Assembly: GCF_013407185.1 (NCBI RefSeq)
Contig: NZ_CP026995.1
Span: forward strand, 1,868,954 to 1,900,953
From: Nitrosopumilus ureiphilus
Lineage (GTDB): Archaea > Thermoproteota > Nitrososphaeria > Nitrososphaerales > Nitrosopumilaceae
Length of the DNA: 32,000 nt
Direction: 5' to 3'
The notes under the pieces are model-generated. The model made no database searches, was not told where the DNA came from, and saw only the letters and a program-made list of their open reading frames with translations. The first letter of the stretch is position 1, and the number at the start of each line of letters is the position of its first letter. Below are positions 8,382 through 15,684 of the stretch, one piece after another. Made by a program: the position numbers and the translations under genes.

Positions 8382-8471
8382 GATTAACTAACAAATACAA
8401 ATTGATGTTGATTGCAAATAAATCTTGGTTAAAAATAACTTAAAATTCAAGTCTTTTTCATTCTTGTTTGT

Positions 8472-8625
8472 GGGGTCGTAGCCTAGCCTGGTAGGGCGAC
8501 AGTGTCTACGAAAAAGATCACCGCTAAGGGCTCCAAAGGTTAACTAAGCTAAACTGACTCACGGATGATGTAAGTTTGGAGCTGTAGTGACCCGTAGGTC
8601 GCCGGTTCGATTCCGGTCGGCCCCA
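8472..8625 (+). tRNA. tRNA-Trp(CCA) with two predicted introns (8501-8527 at position 28/29; ~8538-8590 at 37/38 or 38/39)
   Basis: Hand-folded. Acceptor GGGGTCG/CGGCCCC, T arm GCCGG-TTCGATT-CCGGT. After removing 27-nt and 53-nt inserts, the anticodon arm is ACGGG-CTCCAAA-CCCGT with variable loop AGGTC, giving a canonical 74-nt cloverleaf. Confidence 0.75.
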
Positions 8626-9106
8626 CGTACTATACGGGTTCATATGGTAAAAGCTAGAATTTATTTTTAGAACATAATCTTCAAAAATCTTGGTTAAAAT
8701 TCACCAAAAAATTGTTATGCAAAAATTACTAGTTTTTGATTTTATTGTATCTAGAGTTCAAATTGTAATGAGAGCATGATGTTATTGGGGTATAGACAAG
8801 CCCCTCTCATTTGACCATTAGTGAAAACTATGTGGAAATCAAAGCACAAAGATAACAATTTACATCACAAAAAAATGTAGGGACTTGAACTGATTAGAAA
8901 AAGCCCCTCGAGAGAATTTAATTTCAAATCTTGATCGTAATATGTAAAATAAAATGTTCTTTTTGACTTTCCGTTTTAAAAAATATCAAAAAATTAGGTT
9001 TAATTCAAATTATACTACAAAAAAACTTATTTCAAATTTTTTCAATTAAAAACACATGATCTGCTAAAAATAATGAATTTATGTGTAAAAAAATTAAAAA
9101 ATATTC

Positions 9107-9547
9107 TCAGGGATAATATTCACTTAATACCACTGATTTAGATATTCGATTAGAATTACTTGTAATCTTACCTTGATGTAAAGCATCAGTAACTACTTTC
9201 ATCAAAATTGTACGGTTCATAGGTTTTGAAATAAAGCTAAAGGCACCTAATTTCATCAGATAATTGATTGTGGTTTGATCATCTTTCCAAGCACTAATCA
9301 TAATCACTCTTGTATCCTTATCATTTTTTCGAATATATTCTAAAACTTTTGAACCATCAAGATTTGGCATCACATAATCCAATAAAATCAAATCCGGCCG
9401 ATATTTTACATATAACTTTAATCCCTCTACTCCATCTTTTGCTTCACAAATTCGAGCAAGTCGTACAGATTTCTTAATTATATCATGACAAAATGATCTA
9501 AATACTTTAGAATCGTCAATTATTAAAATAATCGGATATTTTCGCAT
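9107..9547 (-). CDS. stand-alone response-regulator receiver domain (CheY-like)
   Basis: 146 aa with ILIIDDS, the phospho-acceptor context DLILLDYVMPNLDG, VIMISAW and FISKP. It has no output domain and there is no adjacent kinase. Confidence 0.85.
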   Translation of the reverse strand: MRKYPIILIIDDSKVFRSFCHDIIKKSVRLARICEAKDGVEGLKLYVKYRPDLILLDYVMPNLDGSKVLEYIRKNDKDTRVIMISAWKDDQTTINYLMKLGAFSFISKPMNRTILMKVVTDALHQGKITSNSNRISKSVVLSEYYP

Positions 9548-9749
9548 AATTAATAATTATTTTTAAATAATTTAGTAAGCAGTTTGACTTTTTTAAACAA
9601 TCACTGAAATTTATGTAAAACCAATTTGAAACCAGATATTTTATTTCATGACAGTCACATACACATTCTTCTACACATTCTTCTACACATTTCATCCTAA
9701 AGCAATCATCACATAGGTTTCGTGGGTTTTGAATCATATTTTCAAACAA
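9516..9749 (-). CDS. possible small Cys-rich protein (uncertain)
   Basis: 77-aa ORF with 7 Cys in 21 residues (CDDCFRMKCVEECVEECVCDC). Its 3' part runs through AT-rich promoter-like sequence and overlaps the receiver-gene start by 32 nt. Confidence 0.25.
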   Translation of the reverse strand: MFENMIQNPRNLCDDCFRMKCVEECVEECVCDCHEIKYLVSNWFYINFSDCLKKSNCLLNYLKIIINYAKISDYFNN

Positions 9750-9797
9750 TTTGAATTCAAATAATACAAATTAAAGATAGAATTTAAAATTAATCAC

Positions 9798-10088
9798 ATG
9801 CCTACAAACATGCATCTAAACGCATTAAATGAACTTCAATATATGAAAAACCCATCCTTTGTAATCTTTGAGTTCAATAGCAATGCCATAGTTGATTTTG
9901 CAGAAGATTTAGAAGAAGCTCAAGGAAAATGTAAGATTGCAAATTCTGTGGGCTCAAATTGCAAATTCTTTGAGACGTCAATTTACACCATAGAAAAAAT
10001 ACGCAAGGCAACAAAAGATGTGGATACGAATCATCCTCAGCAAGGAATTGTTATCCCTGGTCTTGATATGAATTTCAGACAAGATTAG
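9798..10088 (+). CDS. hypothetical protein
   Basis: 96-aa ORF with no recognisable motif. Confidence 0.4.
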   Translation: MPTNMHLNALNELQYMKNPSFVIFEFNSNAIVDFAEDLEEAQGKCKIANSVGSNCKFFETSIYTIEKIRKATKDVDTNHPQQGIVIPGLDMNFRQD

Positions 10089-10164
10089 AACATAAATTCT
10101 TGAATTGTCGCGATTTAGGTTTTTTTGGAGAATTAGTGCAAAATCTATGCGGCTAACTATGAAT

Positions 10165-10365
10165 TTAATCTAATTTTACAATTCCTTGTTGAACCAAGTA
10201 TTTGATTGCATTAAGCAATTCATTCTCTGAAACTTGATCTTGTCCATACCATACAAAGATGTTCTTTACCCACTCGGGAATTTTAGATGATGATTTACTT
10301 TCCAAATTTCCATCATAATCTCTATGCCCCTTTGTGTTCCATACGAAGCAAGCTAATAGTTTCAT
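10165..10365 (-). CDS. small protein or fragment carrying one copy of the WW-module (IPEWVKNIFVWYGQDQVSENELLNAIKYLVQQGIV)
   Basis: 66 aa. The C-terminal 38 aa align with the duplicated module of 4327-5016. It has no signal peptide, so it may be a remnant. Confidence 0.45.
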   Translation of the reverse strand: MKLLACFVWNTKGHRDYDGNLESKSSSKIPEWVKNIFVWYGQDQVSENELLNAIKYLVQQGIVKLD

Positions 10366-10454
10366 TTATTTTGTCATATTTTTCTAATTTATGATTCTAA
10401 AATAGAATGGAGCTTTGTTGATTCTCTGACGAAAATATTTTCCAATCTTTTCAG

Positions 10455-10595
10455 CTAGTGATCTTTTTCTTTAGCATTGGCTATTAGATTCTCCAATGCA
10501 TGTGAACGGTTGGCAAACCTTTTCTTCTTGATTCCATCGTCAATCCATTTTATAAGATCCGCATCAATTGACACTGAAAATTTCTCCTTCTTCAC
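10455..10595 (-). CDS. ribbon-helix-helix (CopG/Arc/MetJ-type) DNA-binding protein, GTG start
   Basis: 46-aa ORF below the ORF-track cutoff, translated by hand as VKKEKFSVSIDADLIKWIDDGIKKKRFANRSHALENLIANAKEKDH. It shows the classic beta-strand plus two-helix pattern and is a paralogue of 14785-14922. Confidence 0.6.
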   Translation of the reverse strand: MKKEKFSVSIDADLIKWIDDGIKKKRFANRSHALENLIANAKEKDH

Positions 10596-10772
10596 TCTAA
10601 ACTCCTGCCAACTTGTGGATTAATACCAATGCGAATTATTCCAAATATGGAACTGAAATCATCACAAACCATGCGTAACAGATGAATTCATACAGGCTCA
10701 TTTTTATAAACGAGTGATACATAGTACTACACAGTAATATACAGTAACACGGATGTATGAACATAAGATAAA

Positions 10773-10952
10773 ATGAGCAATTCTAAAAGAGATACTGAGG
10801 AAGAGGTTTTAGGACCATTAGTAGAGGTGGAATGGAAATTCAAGTTGGACAAGACTATCTACAGAGAGTATCTCACTATGGAGCAATATGAGAACCTTAA
10901 GGAGATTCCGATAGTAAAATACTGCAAAATTATTGATGAAAAAAGATATTGA
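10773..10952 (+). CDS. hypothetical 59-aa protein
   Basis: Hand-translated ORF (MSNSKRDTEEEVLGPLVEVEWKFKLDKTIYREYLTMEQYENLKEIPIVKYCKIIDEKRY). A TTTTTATAAA TATA-like box lies ~65 nt upstream. Confidence 0.3.
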   Translation: MSNSKRDTEEEVLGPLVEVEWKFKLDKTIYREYLTMEQYENLKEIPIVKYCKIIDEKRY

Positions 10953-11286
10953 TGATCATTTAGGCGGTACAGGTGCTAGTCTCATTTCGCTCTATAATGC
11001 TCATATCGATAAGCCTAGACTTTACACGGGATTCTATTAGGGAATCAAGATTCACATCAGTAACTATTACTGGTGACCTCGGATCTACATTTTTTGGAGT
11101 TTCATAAACAATTACAAAATTAGATAGAATAATCGTTATCACGACACTGAATAATTATAACTATTGTTTTTTTATCCATTTTCATAATATTCTCATGTTG
11201 CTTTTTTAATGTTATGAAATGAAAAAATATTCTAAGAAGATAATAAAAGAGTAGCCTAATACAATACTAGTAATTTTTTTCATGCA

Positions 11287-11475
11287 ATGACATCCAGAAA
11301 ATATACTGTTTTTACAATTGCACTGACAATAATAGCCGCTAGTGTTTTTGCAATGACATATACAACGCTCAACGCAATCGCCTAGGACAAAAATGTATCA
11401 GACGCTCCAGAACCACCCGTAATAGGAAAGAATGTTCTAAAACATGGAATAAGTAAAGGGTTCAATTATTTTTAG
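11287..11475 (+). pseudogene. possible remnant of a secreted/membrane protein gene interrupted by an in-frame TAG
   Basis: The signal-anchor-like MTSRKYTVFTIALTIIAASVFAMTYTTLNAIA ends at a TAG (11383-11385). The same frame then continues for 29 more codons (DKNVSDAPEPPVIGKNVLKHGISKGFNYF). Confidence 0.3.
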
Positions 11476-11594
11476 AAGTATCACCAAATGATATGCTTTA
11501 CTATTAATGAGACATACAGTTTATTTTTGTCAGCAAATAAACAGAATAATTATTCACAATCACAAATTAAATTTTTTATTTAATTATCTCACCA

Positions 11595-13145
11595 CTAACC
11601 AACTTTAACAAATTTTCCTACAGACGGAACATCATTCCCGTCAAGAATGAATAACATGTAATACCCCGGAGGCGCAAATGTGTTATTTTTTGGACTAGAT
11701 ACGGTCAAGATATTTGCTGTTTGATTTATAATTGGCAACATAAGACAGCGTTGATCCATATTGTTGTTGTGTGTTGTAGATGATATCTTTATCAAAGAAA
11801 CTTTTTGAATACTTGATGCATCATCTGTATGTATTTCATAATTATTATTGTAAGACATTGTAGGTAGTTCTATATCCTGAATTTTGGGTCTTGTAGGATT
11901 ACATTGTAGTTTTGGAGGAGTTATAATTTCAATATTGTGCTCAAAATTCTCTTTTGGTGCAAAAACGGATCTTACCCAATTATGACCTGTACTTCCAGCA
12001 ACCACTACTTCTCCACTTGGTAAAAGAACTGCAGAACCATGGTACAGCCTATCTCTTTTTAGATATGACACAACTTTCCATGTTTCATTACGTGGATCAA
12101 ACAAGTGAACTTCCCTTACTGCAATATCATTATCATCAGCTTGTCCTTTTGCAGCACCATTTGTAACTAAAACTGTCCCATCAGGTAAAAGTATGGAATC
12201 ACACAAAAAGCGGCGTATATGTTCAGTTGTTTTTTTCCAACCTGAAGAATTAGCAGGATTATTTAGATCAGCTGTAAATATTTCGGGAGTTTGTGTTGCA
12301 TCTGTATTTTTATCAGGATGTAACTTGGTACTTCCACCAACAAGTAGTATCTTGGCAGTATCTGTTTCATGTTCAAGGGGTAAAAGTACACAGGAGCCCA
12401 TTCCAGGATATGTTCGGGTTCCTGGAGTTTCTGTTTTAAATTTGGCATCAGTAATAAATTTTTTTTCTGCAATATTCCAAATATGTGTAGTTTCTTCTGA
12501 ATGCACAAAAAGAGTTCCACCCGGCAAAACCTGCAAAAATGGATACATTTTGATTTCATCAATAAACTTTACAGGAGTTGAGAGTTTATTGGCTACAGGA
12601 TCAAATATCTCATAATCTAAATTCATGGCACCAAATAATGCATGATGTGCATGTGAATACGTGCCTGATACTATCAATGCTTTGCCATCAGGTAATGTAA
12701 CACATGTGGGATACCATCTTGCTTTTGGCATTCCTGGTTTGTATCTTTGCCATCGTTGATTAGGATCAATATCGGGATTAGGATCAAAAGTATGAATATC
12801 ATGATCTGCTGCAGGTTTTTTTATAATTTTTAACACTAATTGCAGAAATCCTGGTAGAGACAATACAATTGTTGCAGGATGATTATATGTGGACTGGCCA
12901 CCTGCAACAAACAATCGTCCATCCGGAAGAAAACAATGACCAGAACAAAACAAATTCCTTCCTAGTTTTGGATTAATTGGATTACGTGGATCTTCAGGAT
13001 CCCATAGACTAGATTCACCTTTTGTCCAGTTCCAAATATTTTCATGATCACCAGAAAACAACAATACTTTTCCAGTTCGTAAAAGTGCTAGATGTACAGC
13101 TATGGATTCTACTTCATATGTAGCATTCTGATGATCTATTTCCAT
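11595..13145 (-). CDS. copper radical oxidase (galactose oxidase / glyoxal oxidase-like; Kelch beta-propeller plus C-terminal E-set domain)
   Basis: 516 aa. Family ligand contexts are all present: FCSGH (Cys of the Tyr-Cys cofactor), ARWYPT, RLYHGS and TTHNNNMDQR. No N-terminal signal peptide. The start overlaps the tyrosinase stop by 10 nt. Confidence 0.85.
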   Translation of the reverse strand: MEIDHQNATYEVESIAVHLALLRTGKVLLFSGDHENIWNWTKGESSLWDPEDPRNPINPKLGRNLFCSGHCFLPDGRLFVAGGQSTYNHPATIVLSLPGFLQLVLKIIKKPAADHDIHTFDPNPDIDPNQRWQRYKPGMPKARWYPTCVTLPDGKALIVSGTYSHAHHALFGAMNLDYEIFDPVANKLSTPVKFIDEIKMYPFLQVLPGGTLFVHSEETTHIWNIAEKKFITDAKFKTETPGTRTYPGMGSCVLLPLEHETDTAKILLVGGSTKLHPDKNTDATQTPEIFTADLNNPANSSGWKKTTEHIRRFLCDSILLPDGTVLVTNGAAKGQADDNDIAVREVHLFDPRNETWKVVSYLKRDRLYHGSAVLLPSGEVVVAGSTGHNWVRSVFAPKENFEHNIEIITPPKLQCNPTRPKIQDIELPTMSYNNNYEIHTDDASSIQKVSLIKISSTTHNNNMDQRCLMLPIINQTANILTVSSPKNNTFAPPGYYMLFILDGNDVPSVGKFVKVG

Positions 13146-14365
13146 CGTCTTTTTGTAAATGGTGACAACAAAAATGCAGATGTTCTAGCAAGTGCAACAA
13201 ATGGGAGAACGATAGAATATTTCATGATTATTTTAAATGGTTTGTTTTTTCTCATTTGGTCTGCAATGGGAGGGGAAAATTTGTAGTAAATGTTCAAAAT
13301 AAATTCAAATGTTTTTTTGAATTTACTTTTTAATACAACATCATCTCTGAATTCTCGCAAAAACTGAACTGGTGGTTCTAATTCAGAACCATATGCTGCT
13401 GTTGCAATAAAACATCTTTGTCCTGAAGGATTAGGAGTTGGATTTGGAGAAGGGTTAGATATAGGCCATCCACTGCTTCCAGATACATCATCGTAAACAT
13501 AGTCTAGGGCTTCAATATCTAAAACATCTCTTGGTCTTCGTATGTCTGATGCGTCAATTGAGGGCAACAATGGCGTTGCATTACTTATGTTAGTAAAAGA
13601 GTCCCCTCCATCCCATGGCCACATTCTATCATCTAATTTGTGACCGACATTACCTGTATTGTTGGGATTATAGTTATCAGTTCCAGGATGAGTCAGTTGC
13701 CATTTTGCCCAAAGCCTGTCAATATTTGCATGGTGTAAAAAGAAGATAGGATCATTAGGCGAGGTCATTCGGGTCATATGTCCTCCAACTCTCATGTGGA
13801 CAGTTCCATGAGGACCTTCCAATGCAGGTCTAAAACCATGGAAGTTATTTTCATTAAGGGAATTATTTGCCTCAGTTGCAGGAAGTGTTGAAGGATTCAT
13901 GCTATTGTTTCGAAGTAGTGTGGTTCCATGATTACCCTGATCAAGTTGTGGATCTACTTGCCATCCATCAGGGTTTTGTGGTGTTGGAGCTTCAGAAAGA
14001 TATCCTGAAGTTTGCAATCCCATGGTACCCAAAAAATCAACAGTAAAGACATCATCAGTATCAGATGAAACTCCAGATTCCCACTTCCAATAGGGTAAAG
14101 AAACATCAGGATCTACTTCCTGCAGTGCCTTTTCAAATCTTAAGATGAATTCTCTATGCCATGCAAGAAATGCAGGACCGCCATGTCCGCCGTCCCCACT
14201 GGCTGCACCCAGTCTGCTAATAACACCATAATGAATTGCAACAAACTCATCATATACATTAGTAGTGTGCCCAGGTTTTACAGTCTTCTTTAGTGTGATT
14301 ATTGCATTCATGAGTTTTGCTTTATCTGGGGCAGGCAATGTTGCAGCATTTCGTCTTGTATGCAT
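13136..14365 (-). CDS. tyrosinase (type-3 dicopper oxidase) with Pro/Asn linker and C-terminal CFIATAAYGS module plus hydrophobic tail
   Basis: 409 aa. CuA: IHYG...HGGPAFLAWHREFILRFE. CuB: HGTVHMRVGGHM...DPIFFLHHANIDRLWAKWQ. Linker SNPSPNPTPNPSGQR, then CFIATAAYGSELEPPVQFLREFRD and a hydrophobic C-terminus. Confidence 0.85.
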   Translation of the reverse strand: MHTRRNAATLPAPDKAKLMNAIITLKKTVKPGHTTNVYDEFVAIHYGVISRLGAASGDGGHGGPAFLAWHREFILRFEKALQEVDPDVSLPYWKWESGVSSDTDDVFTVDFLGTMGLQTSGYLSEAPTPQNPDGWQVDPQLDQGNHGTTLLRNNSMNPSTLPATEANNSLNENNFHGFRPALEGPHGTVHMRVGGHMTRMTSPNDPIFFLHHANIDRLWAKWQLTHPGTDNYNPNNTGNVGHKLDDRMWPWDGGDSFTNISNATPLLPSIDASDIRRPRDVLDIEALDYVYDDVSGSSGWPISNPSPNPTPNPSGQRCFIATAAYGSELEPPVQFLREFRDDVVLKSKFKKTFEFILNIYYKFSPPIADQMRKNKPFKIIMKYSIVLPFVALARTSAFLLSPFTKRRWK

Positions 14366-14565
14366 TAGCTGTTTTCTCCTTCATCTATGATTGATTTTGC
14401 AAGATCTTCCAGTGTAGAAAATTCTCGATAAGGTAAAACATCATATGCAAAATATTTTTTTGTGTCATCATCAAAATTGCATTGTATTTTTTCATCATCA
14501 ATATACAAGACATTTGTATCATATTCAGCTTTGATTATTTTGTTCTTGTAAGATTCTGATGACAT
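14365..14565 (-). CDS. small acidic Tyr-containing protein, first gene of the copper-oxidase cassette
   Basis: 66 aa. Its stop overlaps the tyrosinase start (TAATG). No motif recognised. The position is analogous to tyrosinase helper ('caddie') genes, with no sequence similarity claimed. Confidence 0.5.
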   Translation of the reverse strand: MSSESYKNKIIKAEYDTNVLYIDDEKIQCNFDDDTKKYFAYDVLPYREFSTLEDLAKSIIDEGENS

Positions 14566-14660
14566 AATTTAGTAGAGTATGACTGTAATACATAAGGATT
14601 ATGCAATTCAAGGAAAATCATATTTATTTGTTTATTACCCATCACAAAATAATAACAAGA

Positions 14661-14741
14661 CAAACAGGATAACAAAACCTGTTACAATTAGTTGAGAGTT
14701 CAAACCTGTTGAGGTTTGGTTGTACGAGTCTCGAGGTTTGT
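14661..14741. promoter_or_regulatory. cluster of palindromic/half-site motifs upstream of the copper-oxidase cassette
   Basis: AACAGG-N9-CCTGTT (14663-14683); a perfect 18-bp palindrome CAAACCT-GTTG-AGGTTTG (14701-14718); and a third AGGTTTG at 14734-14740 next to the palindrome CGAGTCTCG. The cluster lies 100-175 nt upstream of the ATG at 14565. Confidence 0.45.
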
Positions 14742-15483
14742 TAAAATGAAATGTTTAGAATAAAAATGAAAATTTAATTTTTACTTATCCCTCATCCATT
14801 AATTTTTGAATAGCATATTGAATACAATGCGATCTATTTGCAAATATTCTTTTTTCAATTTTTTTGTCTATCCACTCAAGTTGATCTTTTTCAAGTGCTA
14901 TACTTACAGGGTTTTTTTCCATTTTTCATAATTCCATCATTGAATTATGAATGATTAATTTCTAGTAACATTTAACTAGTATTAATAATTATTAATATTC
15001 ATTAATAATGGTTAATAATCAATATGATGAAAATGAGATGAAAAAGAAACATTTGGAATTGGAAATTAGACTAAAAGAATTTTTCAAAAATTACAAAACT
15101 CATTCTGAGAGACTCTCTAAAAATCAGTGATCATAAGATATCTTCAAAAAATTATTCCACAACATTTTCTATCTATGAAATCACAAAACGAGCTTTGTTT
15201 ACAGAGTTCATTATGAATGAAGATGAATCAGAAGGAATCATAATTTGTGAGAAATGTATGACAATATGGAAAAATTATTATGAATATTTATCAAAACACT
15301 TTGAGAACATAATTTTATATTTTAGATTGGAAAACATTCATCATAATCAGGCATAGGATTTATGAAAATCGTTCTCATGTTATTTACAGAGTTCTTCATT
15401 TTAGAATTACGATATCCAAAAAACCAGAATTTGTTCAAACCCTAATAGGTTTGGTTTAGTGAACCGTGGCAGGTTTGAACTCT
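14695..15483. repeat. 14-bp inverted repeat pair (AGAGTTCAAACCTG at 14695-14708; its reverse complement at 15470-15483) bracketing a 789-bp segment
   Basis: Exact 14/14 match read directly. A third partial copy, GTTCAAACC, at 15433-15441 forms CAAACC-N6-GGTTTG. The segment contains the RHH gene and short broken plus-strand ORFs. Confidence 0.6.
14785..14922 (-). CDS. ribbon-helix-helix (CopG-type) DNA-binding protein
   Basis: 45-aa ORF below the track cutoff: MEKNPVSIALEKDQLEWIDKKIEKRIFANRSHCIQYAIQKLMDEG. It shares VSI...WID...FANRSH with 10455-10595. Confidence 0.6.
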   Translation of the reverse strand: MEKNPVSIALEKDQLEWIDKKIEKRIFANRSHCIQYAIQKLMDEG

Positions 15484-15658
15484 ACTTGTTATTTTCCAGT
15501 TTCTTTTGATTATACAGAATGTTTTTCTTTTTTAGATCGTCTAGTGTTCTGCCCAACTCCTCGACATAAATTGGCTAAAGATTCTCATTATTCTTGATTA
15601 ACCCAAATCACGTAAATCCAATCATGGATATTCGTGTATGAACCTGATTAGTCATAAC

Positions 15659-15684
15659 GTTTGATTCCAGTTGTCCCACGTAAA
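15659..15684 (+). repeat. degenerate direct copy of the tRNA-Trp 3' end (att-like)
   Basis: GTTTGATTCCAGTTGTCCCACGTAA aligns to tRNA positions 8605-8629 (GTTCGATTCCGGTCGGCCCCACGTA) with 20 of 25 identities and one 1-nt gap. Three of the four substitutions are C-to-T or G-to-A changes. Same orientation; 7 nt from the aconitase stop. Confidence 0.45.

Follow-up and report, generated by a model that had tools for sequence, protein, structure and literature searches.

The tryptophan transfer RNA (tRNA-Trp) precursor of Euryarchaeota reportedly carries an intron that encodes a box C/D guide RNA, a system said to have been described by Clouet d'Orval et al. 2001 and Singh et al. 2004. The present work concerns a tRNA-Trp gene with two introns, and in particular its second intron, at positions 8472-8625 of a stretch of 32,000 nucleotides (nt) from Nitrosopumilus ureiphilus. 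This stretch, called the window, spans G000:C1:1868954-1900953, where G000 is the window's genome, a single contig of 2.17 Mb (99.8% complete, 32.5% G+C). The host belongs to the order Nitrososphaerales, and it is an ammonia-oxidising archaeon because archaeal amoA is encoded in its genome. Taken as one joint explanation, it is probable that the locus is a functional single-copy tRNA-Trp(CCA) gene split by two introns, and that intron 2 descends from the euryarchaeal tRNA-Trp box C/D guide, keeping the internal D'/C' kink-turn and the arm that faces C34 and having lost the rest.

In Haloferax volcanii the intron guides the 2'-O-methylation of C34 and U39 (Cm34 and Um39; PMC4090602, PMC7714728), and reviews up to 2024 assign the element to Haloferax and other Euryarchaeota (PMC11408192). 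The tRNA-Trp of Sulfolobus acidocaldarius carries Cm34 (Wolff et al. 2020, PMC7668247). This modification limits C34 to pairing with G, so that tRNA-Trp does not read UGA (PMC7668247). In Sulfolobus solfataricus, the tRNA-Trp intron of 65 nt lacks consensus boxes and is complementary to the tRNA around positions 34 and 39 (Danan et al. 2012, PMC3326292). It is found as a very abundant circle, and tRNA-Trp introns are unusually stable circles in both Haloferax and Sulfolobus (PMC3326292). A version of the element without boxes thus coexists with Cm34 in at least one lineage, because Sulfolobus has both, with the causal link unproven. Our literature searches found nothing on the element in ammonia oxidisers.

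The exons and introns of the gene in the window are arranged as follows.

8472-8500, + strand: exon 1, tRNA nt 1-28 (5' strand of the acceptor stem, D arm, G26, A27 and C28), from the ARAGORN cloverleaf after intron removal
8501-8527, + strand: intron 1, 27 nt, at the non-canonical position 28/29, with a bulge-helix-bulge
8528-8536, + strand: exon 2, nt 29-37 (G29 G30 G31 C32 U33 C34 C35 A36 A37), holding the anticodon CCA, from ARAGORN
8537-8589, + strand: intron 2, 53 nt, at the canonical position 37/38, a putative reduced box C/D-type guide, from ARAGORN and homology
8590-8625, + strand: exon 3, nt 38-73 (A38, 3' strand of the anticodon stem, variable loop, T arm, 3' strand of the acceptor stem and discriminator A73)

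An earlier note on this DNA, made from the sequence alone, had proposed a tRNA-Trp(CCA) with these two introns, and all of its coordinates match the sequence. ARAGORN was used in default mode, with introns enabled, and on sequences after intron deletion. When intron 1 is deleted, the program returns tRNA-Trp(cca) with a 53-nt intron, and when both introns are deleted it returns a perfect 75-nt tRNA-Trp(cca) cloverleaf with G1-C72 and A73, which upholds both the identity and the exon boundaries. The CCA end is not encoded in the gene. The boundary of intron 1 is unique. Intron 2 can be written as 8537-8589 or as 8538-8590, two equivalent boundaries that arise because an A flanks both ends.

The gene is missed by default ARAGORN and by the Rfam tRNA model, and when introns are enabled on the raw window ARAGORN gives a wrong call, tRNA-Gln(ttg) with an intron of 70 nt (8472-8626). 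These results would suit a disrupted pseudogene, or an artefact of introns fitted by hand, and yet such a reading can hardly be credited. No second tRNA-Trp is present among the 46 tRNA genes that ARAGORN lists genome-wide in the 2.17 Mb of this nearly complete genome. The two-intron gene was found in 110 of the 112 sampled genomes of the family, a count to be read with the kinship of the compared genomes in mind, since counts across relatives are not independent. The same gene occurs with compensatory changes in other families of the order. In addition, a promoter-like block upstream of the gene is conserved:

8412-8451, + strand: presumed tRNA promoter, a conserved AT-rich block TTGCAAATAAATCTTGGTTAAAAATAACTTAAAATTCAAG with a TATA-like TTAAAAATAA

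This block precedes tRNA-Trp in the congeners, including those whose gene is intronless. In what follows the family of the window is labelled f1, the labels f4, f9, f14 and f28 denote other families, and L-numbers denote compared sequences. The relatives compared from family f9 (Nitrosocaldaceae) were Candidatus Nitrosocaldus schleperae (G079) and Candidatus Nitrosothermus koennekii (G097).

The central part of intron 2 contains the elements of a kink-turn.

8554-8557, + strand: box D' (CUGA), invariant across Nitrososphaerales, pairing with box C' as a predicted kink-turn
8558-8564, + strand: kink-turn loop (CUCACGG), with C8558-G8563 closing the C helix and G8564 as L1 of the loop
8565-8571, + strand: box C' (AUGAUGU), conserved in every lineage, with AUGAUGA or GUGAUGA in other phyla

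The earlier note had seen in this section a resemblance to a D'/C' pair. Its CTGA at 8554-8557, 7-nt loop and ATGATGT at 8565-8571, as well as the downstream TTTGGAGC at 8575-8582, are all present at those positions, and the resemblance proves to be real, the section being a kink-turn that is conserved and whose closing pair covaries. The arrangement of CUGA, 7 nt and AUGAUGU is conserved in every intron-bearing family. The first and penultimate nt of the loop covary in 27 distinct loops (C-G in 18, U-A in 7, U-G in 1 and U-U in 1), and from the alignment this pair would be the -1b/-1n closing pair expected of a kink-turn. Because the closing pair covaries, selection appears to act on the kink-turn fold. 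The predicted sheared pairs are G8567·A8557 and A8568·G8556, followed by U8569·U8555 and then by G8570-C8554. In more distant Thermoproteota the loop has turned into a short stem, either CC-GUAA-GG or CCC-CGU-GGG.

The pattern CTGA-N(3-12)-RTGATG occurs in only 0.16% of 200,000 shuffles of intron 2, which served as the null for motif frequencies, and the kink-turn motif was seen in none of the genome's other intron-containing tRNA genes that were inspected. The genes for Nop5 and fibrillarin are adjacent to each other in the genome. Rfam searches at gathering and permissive thresholds placed no small nucleolar RNA or small RNA (sRNA) family over the locus and returned only spurious weak matches there. 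A genome-wide run of the model RF00095 (snoPyro_CD) left intron 2 unmatched and gave a single C/D candidate at another place. Outside the window, at G000:C1:107172-107226 (L105), there is a candidate for a free-standing box C/D sRNA that scores 38 bits to RF00095, below the cut-off. Its boxes read GUGAUGA and CUGA, its terminal stem is GGC/GCC and its D' (UGAA) is degenerate, and canonical terminal boxes do occur in this genome because this candidate has them.

The section of intron 2 that follows box C' is complementary to the anticodon loop.

8572-8583, + strand: D spacer (AAGUUUGGAGCU), the 12 nt after box C', of which 8575-8582 pairs with G31-A38 and U8583 can wobble with G30

The fragment 8575-8582 is the complement of G31-A38, and the D spacer makes 9 contiguous pairs, one of them G-U, with nt 30-38 of its own tRNA. 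In most of the lineages sampled this pairing run is 8-10 base pairs (bp) long. The 8-mer complement occurs in 0.11% of the 200,000 shuffles of intron 2. The residue opposite C34 is G8579, which is nt 8 of the spacer (nt 9 where the spacer has 13 nt), and this placement is also found in most compared lineages, including Thermoplasmata, Geoglobus, Hadesarchaea and Bathyarchaeota. Aciduliprofundum is an exception, with a longer spacer in which the partner of C34 is nt 11. Counted upstream from box D, nt 8 of a 12-nt spacer is the fifth nucleotide (N+5), the canonical position of the methylation target. The D spacer is nearly invariant in the family though the flanking intron diverges, and the invariant part includes UUUGG, which is not used by the splice motif. 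The earlier note had extended the pairing to 11 bp over intron 1 by means of ACAG (8499-8502). This extension exists in the window, but its outermost pair is lost where the tail reads CUGC and the extension is absent in f14; it is treated here as incidental.

The 3' end of intron 2 holds the slot in which box D would be expected.

8584-8587, + strand: GUAG in the box D slot, 3' strand of the central splice helix of intron 2, a conserved G-Y-R-G
8587-8590, + strand: GUGA, possible displaced variant of box D, overlapping the 3' splice site (UG/A38, with the slash at the cut)

In the splice motif of intron 2, the central helix is formed by nt 32-35 (CUCC) and GUAG 8584-8587, with the pair G-C35, a mismatch of U and C34, and the pairs A-U33 and G-C32. 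The bulges are A36 A37/A8537 and U8588 G8589/A38, and the inner helix consists of GGUU 8538-8541 and AGCU 8580-8583 (3-4 bp). This bulge-helix-bulge is relaxed, as three of the four central pairs form. Both the mismatch at C34 and the G-Y-R-G pattern are conserved in nearly all sampled Nitrososphaerales, the R that faces U33 being A or G. The alternative that the conserved elements are only splicing-motif structure, which the earlier note had left standing, accounts for GUAG-UG (8584-8589) and AGCU (8580-8583), but it covers neither the kink-turn nor UUUGG. Energies computed under cloverleaf constraints are predicted to be -43.9 kcal/mol for the guide conformer (8575-8582 with nt 31-38) and -38.3 kcal/mol for the splice conformer.

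The kink-turn hairpin might also have a role other than methylation, either as an L7Ae-dependent chaperone of the anticodon loop during ordered splicing or as a stabiliser of the circle. The D spacer can pair with ACAG 8499-8502 across intron 1 as well, the guide and splice conformers are mutually exclusive, and tRNA-Trp introns form stable circles in Haloferax and Sulfolobus (PMC3326292), all of which would be in line with such a role. However, the pairing that spans intron 1 is conserved in no more than part of the order, the geometry is exactly that of a methylation guide, and nothing indicates another target, the best match of the upstream D' spacer to ribosomal RNA (rRNA) being 10/12 in 23S, about the level of chance. 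A role of this kind is very unlikely.

The descent of intron 2 from the euryarchaeal guide is indicated by its core, GGGUCAU-CUGA-loop-AUGAUGN-...CUGGAGC, which is nearly identical in Nitrosocaldus and Thermoplasmata. The intron of Nitrosocaldus (..GGGUCAU CUGA .. AUGAUGU ..CUGGAGC..) aligns with that of Thermoplasmata (..GGGUCAU CUGA CGU AUGAUGA AUAACUGGAGCG AUGA). The core of intron 2 can likewise be aligned with the tRNA-Trp introns of Thermoplasmata, Aciduliprofundum and Geoglobus, which have canonical boxes. Judged by this alignment, intron 2 is a reduced homolog of the euryarchaeal intron guide, and the divergent or degenerate version that the earlier note had suggested gains support. 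The D slot reads CUGA in Aciduliprofundum and Geoglobus, AUGA in Thermoplasmata and GUAG here. In canonical Euryarchaeota the splice helix is given by a second GGAG copy downstream of box D. In Nitrososphaerales the intron is compacted, with the D slot turned into a strand of the splice helix. The sampled Hadesarchaea, Bathyarchaeota and other Nitrososphaeria have a non-canonical D slot and too little room for box C. In two other lineages of Thermoproteota (L114, L127) a GUGA keeps the canonical distance, and in f28 (L117, L119-L122) it is shifted downstream by 3-4 nt, as it is here; its counterpart reads CUGA in Nitrosothermus, and GCGA, GAGA, GUUA or GUCA in five lineages.

With the euryarchaeal guide (Pyrococcus sR50, Haloferax volcanii) the locus shares the 37/38 site in tRNA-Trp(CCA), the D'/C' kink-turn, and the spacer after C', whose duplex spans the 5' exon-intron junction and has C34 in the canonical place. 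The duplex of nt 39 over the intron-3' exon junction, at N+5, is shared with the sister families, and in both systems the RNA can fold either into the guide duplexes or into the splice motif. However, the present intron has no box C and no CUGA or AUGA in the D slot, where GUAG doubles as a splice-helix strand. It has no separate second copy of GGAG, and its length is only 53 nt. The D' guide is lost in the family, position 39 is C and not U, and there is an extra intron at 28/29. The intron of S. solfataricus, compared by its published description, is a tRNA-Trp intron of the TACK lineage, as is the one considered here. In contrast to it, a fully canonical internal D'/C' kink-turn is documented in the present intron, with only the position-34 arm surviving. 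Circularisation and stability have been shown for Sulfolobus, and for the intron in the window circularisation is predicted.

The second guide arm of the euryarchaeal intron corresponds to the section upstream of box D'.

8542-8553, + strand: D' spacer (AACUAAGCUAAA), former C39 guide, not complementary to the tRNA in this genome

Pairing of the D' spacer with C39 is present in the sister groups Nitrosocaldaceae and f4, in one f14 lineage (L094) and in two other lineages of Nitrososphaeria. In Bathyarchaeota, Hadesarchaea and the Euryarchaeota examined, the D' spacer likewise pairs with nt 39. Its pairing partner consists of the intron end and A38-C39-C40-C41 onward, and the runs are mostly 8-10 bp. 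In 12 of the 13 lineages compared, the fifth guide nucleotide before D' (N+5) faces nt 39. Compensatory changes are found as well: U41 occurs with A in the guide, and introns that end in UU/A or AA/A occur with AA or UU in the guide. In the window's family the D' guide for C39 has, by this comparison, decayed, and it is non-functional in this genome. The D' spacer differs between genera and is biased, consistently though weakly, towards pairing with the D spacer (z from -0.2 to -2.9, in most cases near -1.5). The earlier note had named U39 as the second target in Euryarchaeota. Here the residue is C39 and not U39, and it is guided only in the sister families (Nitrosocaldaceae, f4 and part of f14) and not in this genome.

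A new rRNA target for the D' spacer was also considered. The best match, in 23S rRNA outside the window, is 10/12, with 8 contiguous positions (G000:1348850) and G at N+5. This target is not credible: chance alone would give about 0.17 such matches, and from genus to genus the shared CUAAGCU block stands in a different register.

The genome encodes two paralogs of the splicing endonuclease (PF01974) and two RtcB genes (PF01139). In the mechanism that we propose, the archaeal splicing endonuclease would remove both introns at their bulge-helix-bulge motifs and RtcB would ligate the exons. The precursor would alternate between two conformers, one for guiding and one for splicing. L7Ae may bind the D'/C' kink-turn and recruit Nop5-fibrillarin, and C34 could then be methylated in cis or in trans. 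After methylation, the endonuclease would excise both introns, and the excised intron would be circularised.

Several observations weigh against this explanation. No D box obeys the N+5 rule, because the D slot holds GUAG, with no canonical box D at a spacer of about 12 nt, and because GUGA lies 3 nt too far downstream, so that N+5 counted from it falls opposite G31 and not C34. A box C (RUGAUGA) was found neither between the 5' splice site and the D' spacer nor in the exon close by. It would in fact be impossible here, because only 5 nt (AGGUU) separate the 5' splice site from the 12-nt D' spacer. The room before the D' spacer is 5 nt here, 3 nt in Nitrosocaldus and 11-13 nt in Euryarchaeota, where it is occupied by a box C of the form AUGAUGA, GUGAUGA or AUGAUUA. 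The failure of the earlier note to find a terminal C box, or a D box at N+5, is thus borne out. There is also no terminal C/D kink-turn, and efficient methylation by archaeal box C/D ribonucleoproteins needs both the C/D and the C'/D' motifs at fixed spacing. No pairing run was seen in the register that sets position 5 against nt 39 in any of about 40 distinct sequences of family f1, and the splice helix of intron 2 is mismatched at C34. To these points the loss of the introns within the genus, described below, must be added. On the sequence evidence, the chances that C34 is still 2'-O-methylated here, without a terminal kink-turn, appear evenly balanced.

Two other ways of completing the terminal motif were examined and rejected. 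In a terminal kink-turn that sets G37-A(i1) against GUGA, the C helix would be the anticodon stem. Such a fold would need a 5-nt loop and has a G-G clash at 4b/4n; position 37 is A here, so the first sheared pair loses its G. A box C created by circularisation, at the junction GUG·AGGUU (GUGAGGU), matches 5/7 and lacks a D box to go with it. With the D-like CUGU, N+5 would fall on A36, and this candidate is unsupported.

In the genus, the two-intron gene is present in 28 of 46 sampled species. Another 16 of the 46 show only short matches to the tRNA body, and in all eight such loci that were sequenced the same upstream block is followed by a tRNA-Trp that has no intron and differs in its stems. 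No stand-alone C34 guide was found in the genomes with intronless genes by a crude pattern search, the matches of which lay inside coding regions. The guide function would thus be dispensable, because these species are intronless and no stand-alone guide was detected in them. The loss in the genus parallels the deletion of the intron in H. volcanii, which is viable and has no growth phenotype (PMC4090602). The intronless genes are L018, L020-L025 and L028 in the same genus and L100 in a neighbouring genus (1.2-Mb genome). The anticodon stem of the intronless tRNA-Trp (AUGGU/ACCAU) and its T arm differ from those of the window's gene, which looks like gene replacement, or intron loss followed by divergence.

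Such losses bear on the possibility that intron 2 is a relic that guides nothing, in which the kink-turn and the spacer persist for the sake of a fold accepted by the endonuclease, or by inertia. Introns have been lost repeatedly in this genus and in the neighbouring one with no replacement guide detected, and the deletion in H. volcanii has no effect on growth. Box C is gone, box D is absent or misplaced, and the D' guide has decayed throughout the family; the tendency of the D' spacer to pair with the D spacer would sequester the latter. Nevertheless, a relic is unlikely. The D spacer is nearly invariant, including the UUUGG outside the splice motif, the closing pair of the kink-turn covaries, and the partner of C34 is held at nt 8 of the spacer. 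Moreover, Cm34 is present in Sulfolobus, where the intron has no consensus boxes (PMC3326292, PMC7668247).

Intron 1 is an ordinary non-canonical intron. Its bulge-helix-bulge is seen in the minimum free energy fold of the precursor, with a 5' bulge of A27 C28/A8501 and a 3' bulge of A8526 A8527/G8528. The central helix has 4 bp including one G-U (GGCG 8495-8498 with CGCU 8522-8525), and the inner helix, or hairpin, is formed by 8502-8507 and 8515-8521. The central helix does not vary among about 45 distinct relatives, and substitutions in the inner helix compensate one another (GUG/CAC, GUU/AAC, GUA/UAC, GCA/UGC and AUGA/UCAU). Intron 1 is old, because other families of Thermoproteota have an intron at the same 28/29 site, with the end CGYUAA/G. 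As in the multi-intron and non-canonical-intron tRNA genes of Thaumarchaeota and Thermoproteales, which are said to have been described by Sugahara 2008 and Chan 2011, the bulge-helix-bulge of intron 1 partly uses the D-stem strand. The two endonuclease paralogs are those expected for a broad-specificity heterotetramer, and intron 1 shows nothing unusual as a member of this class. The same class of tRNA genes is covered in the tRNAscan-SE 2.0 paper (doi 10.1101/614032), and the splicing endonuclease of Thaumarchaeota is of the broad-specificity type (PMC4090602). In two sequences from another genus of the family (L070, L075), a GATCA palindrome in the intron 1 loop has AUGAUGA or AUGAUCA within it, probably by coincidence and not as a relocated box C.

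Two further observations concern the surroundings of the gene and a related locus. A degenerate direct copy of the tRNA 3' end (CGTTTGATTCCAGTTGTCCCACGTA) is located at 15659-15684, and it is followed by the sequence that is found immediately downstream of tRNA-Trp in relatives. For this reason, about 7 kb (8626-15684) appears to have been inserted at the 3' end of tRNA-Trp in the manner of an integrative element. In a metagenome-assembled genome of the order (G040), two tRNA-Trp-like genes lie about 250 nt apart (L026, about 1230-1460 and 1500-1700), each with its own D'/C' intron, of two different types. The downstream copy seems to have a third insert in the T loop. This genome is 77% complete with 3% contamination, and a chimeric assembly is possible.

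The finding has consequences for annotation, as genomes of this kind may be listed by automated pipelines as being without tRNA-Trp, the gene being missed or mislabelled by standard finders. It also extends the tRNA-Trp intron guide past Euryarchaeota to ammonia-oxidising archaea, Bathyarchaeota, other Nitrososphaeria and Hadesarchaea, and the element would be very old in Archaea because of that wide distribution. The retention of the kink-turn and of the spacer geometry, together with the loss of the terminal boxes, raises the question of whether guided methylation in vivo needs a second kink-turn. The genus offers a natural experiment in this respect, since two-intron and intronless genes at one locus allow a comparison of Cm34. 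A tentative and rather doubtful proposal is that a single internal C'/D' kink-turn is itself a functional guide architecture, in which the splice helices or the tRNA body replace the terminal C/D motif. If this were true, L7Ae-Nop5-fibrillarin would methylate C34, and C39 where that arm survives, from one kink-turn. In that case the tRNA-Trp introns of Thermoproteota and Hadesarchaea would as a rule have the reduced form, and Nitrosopumilaceae would be midway through its loss.

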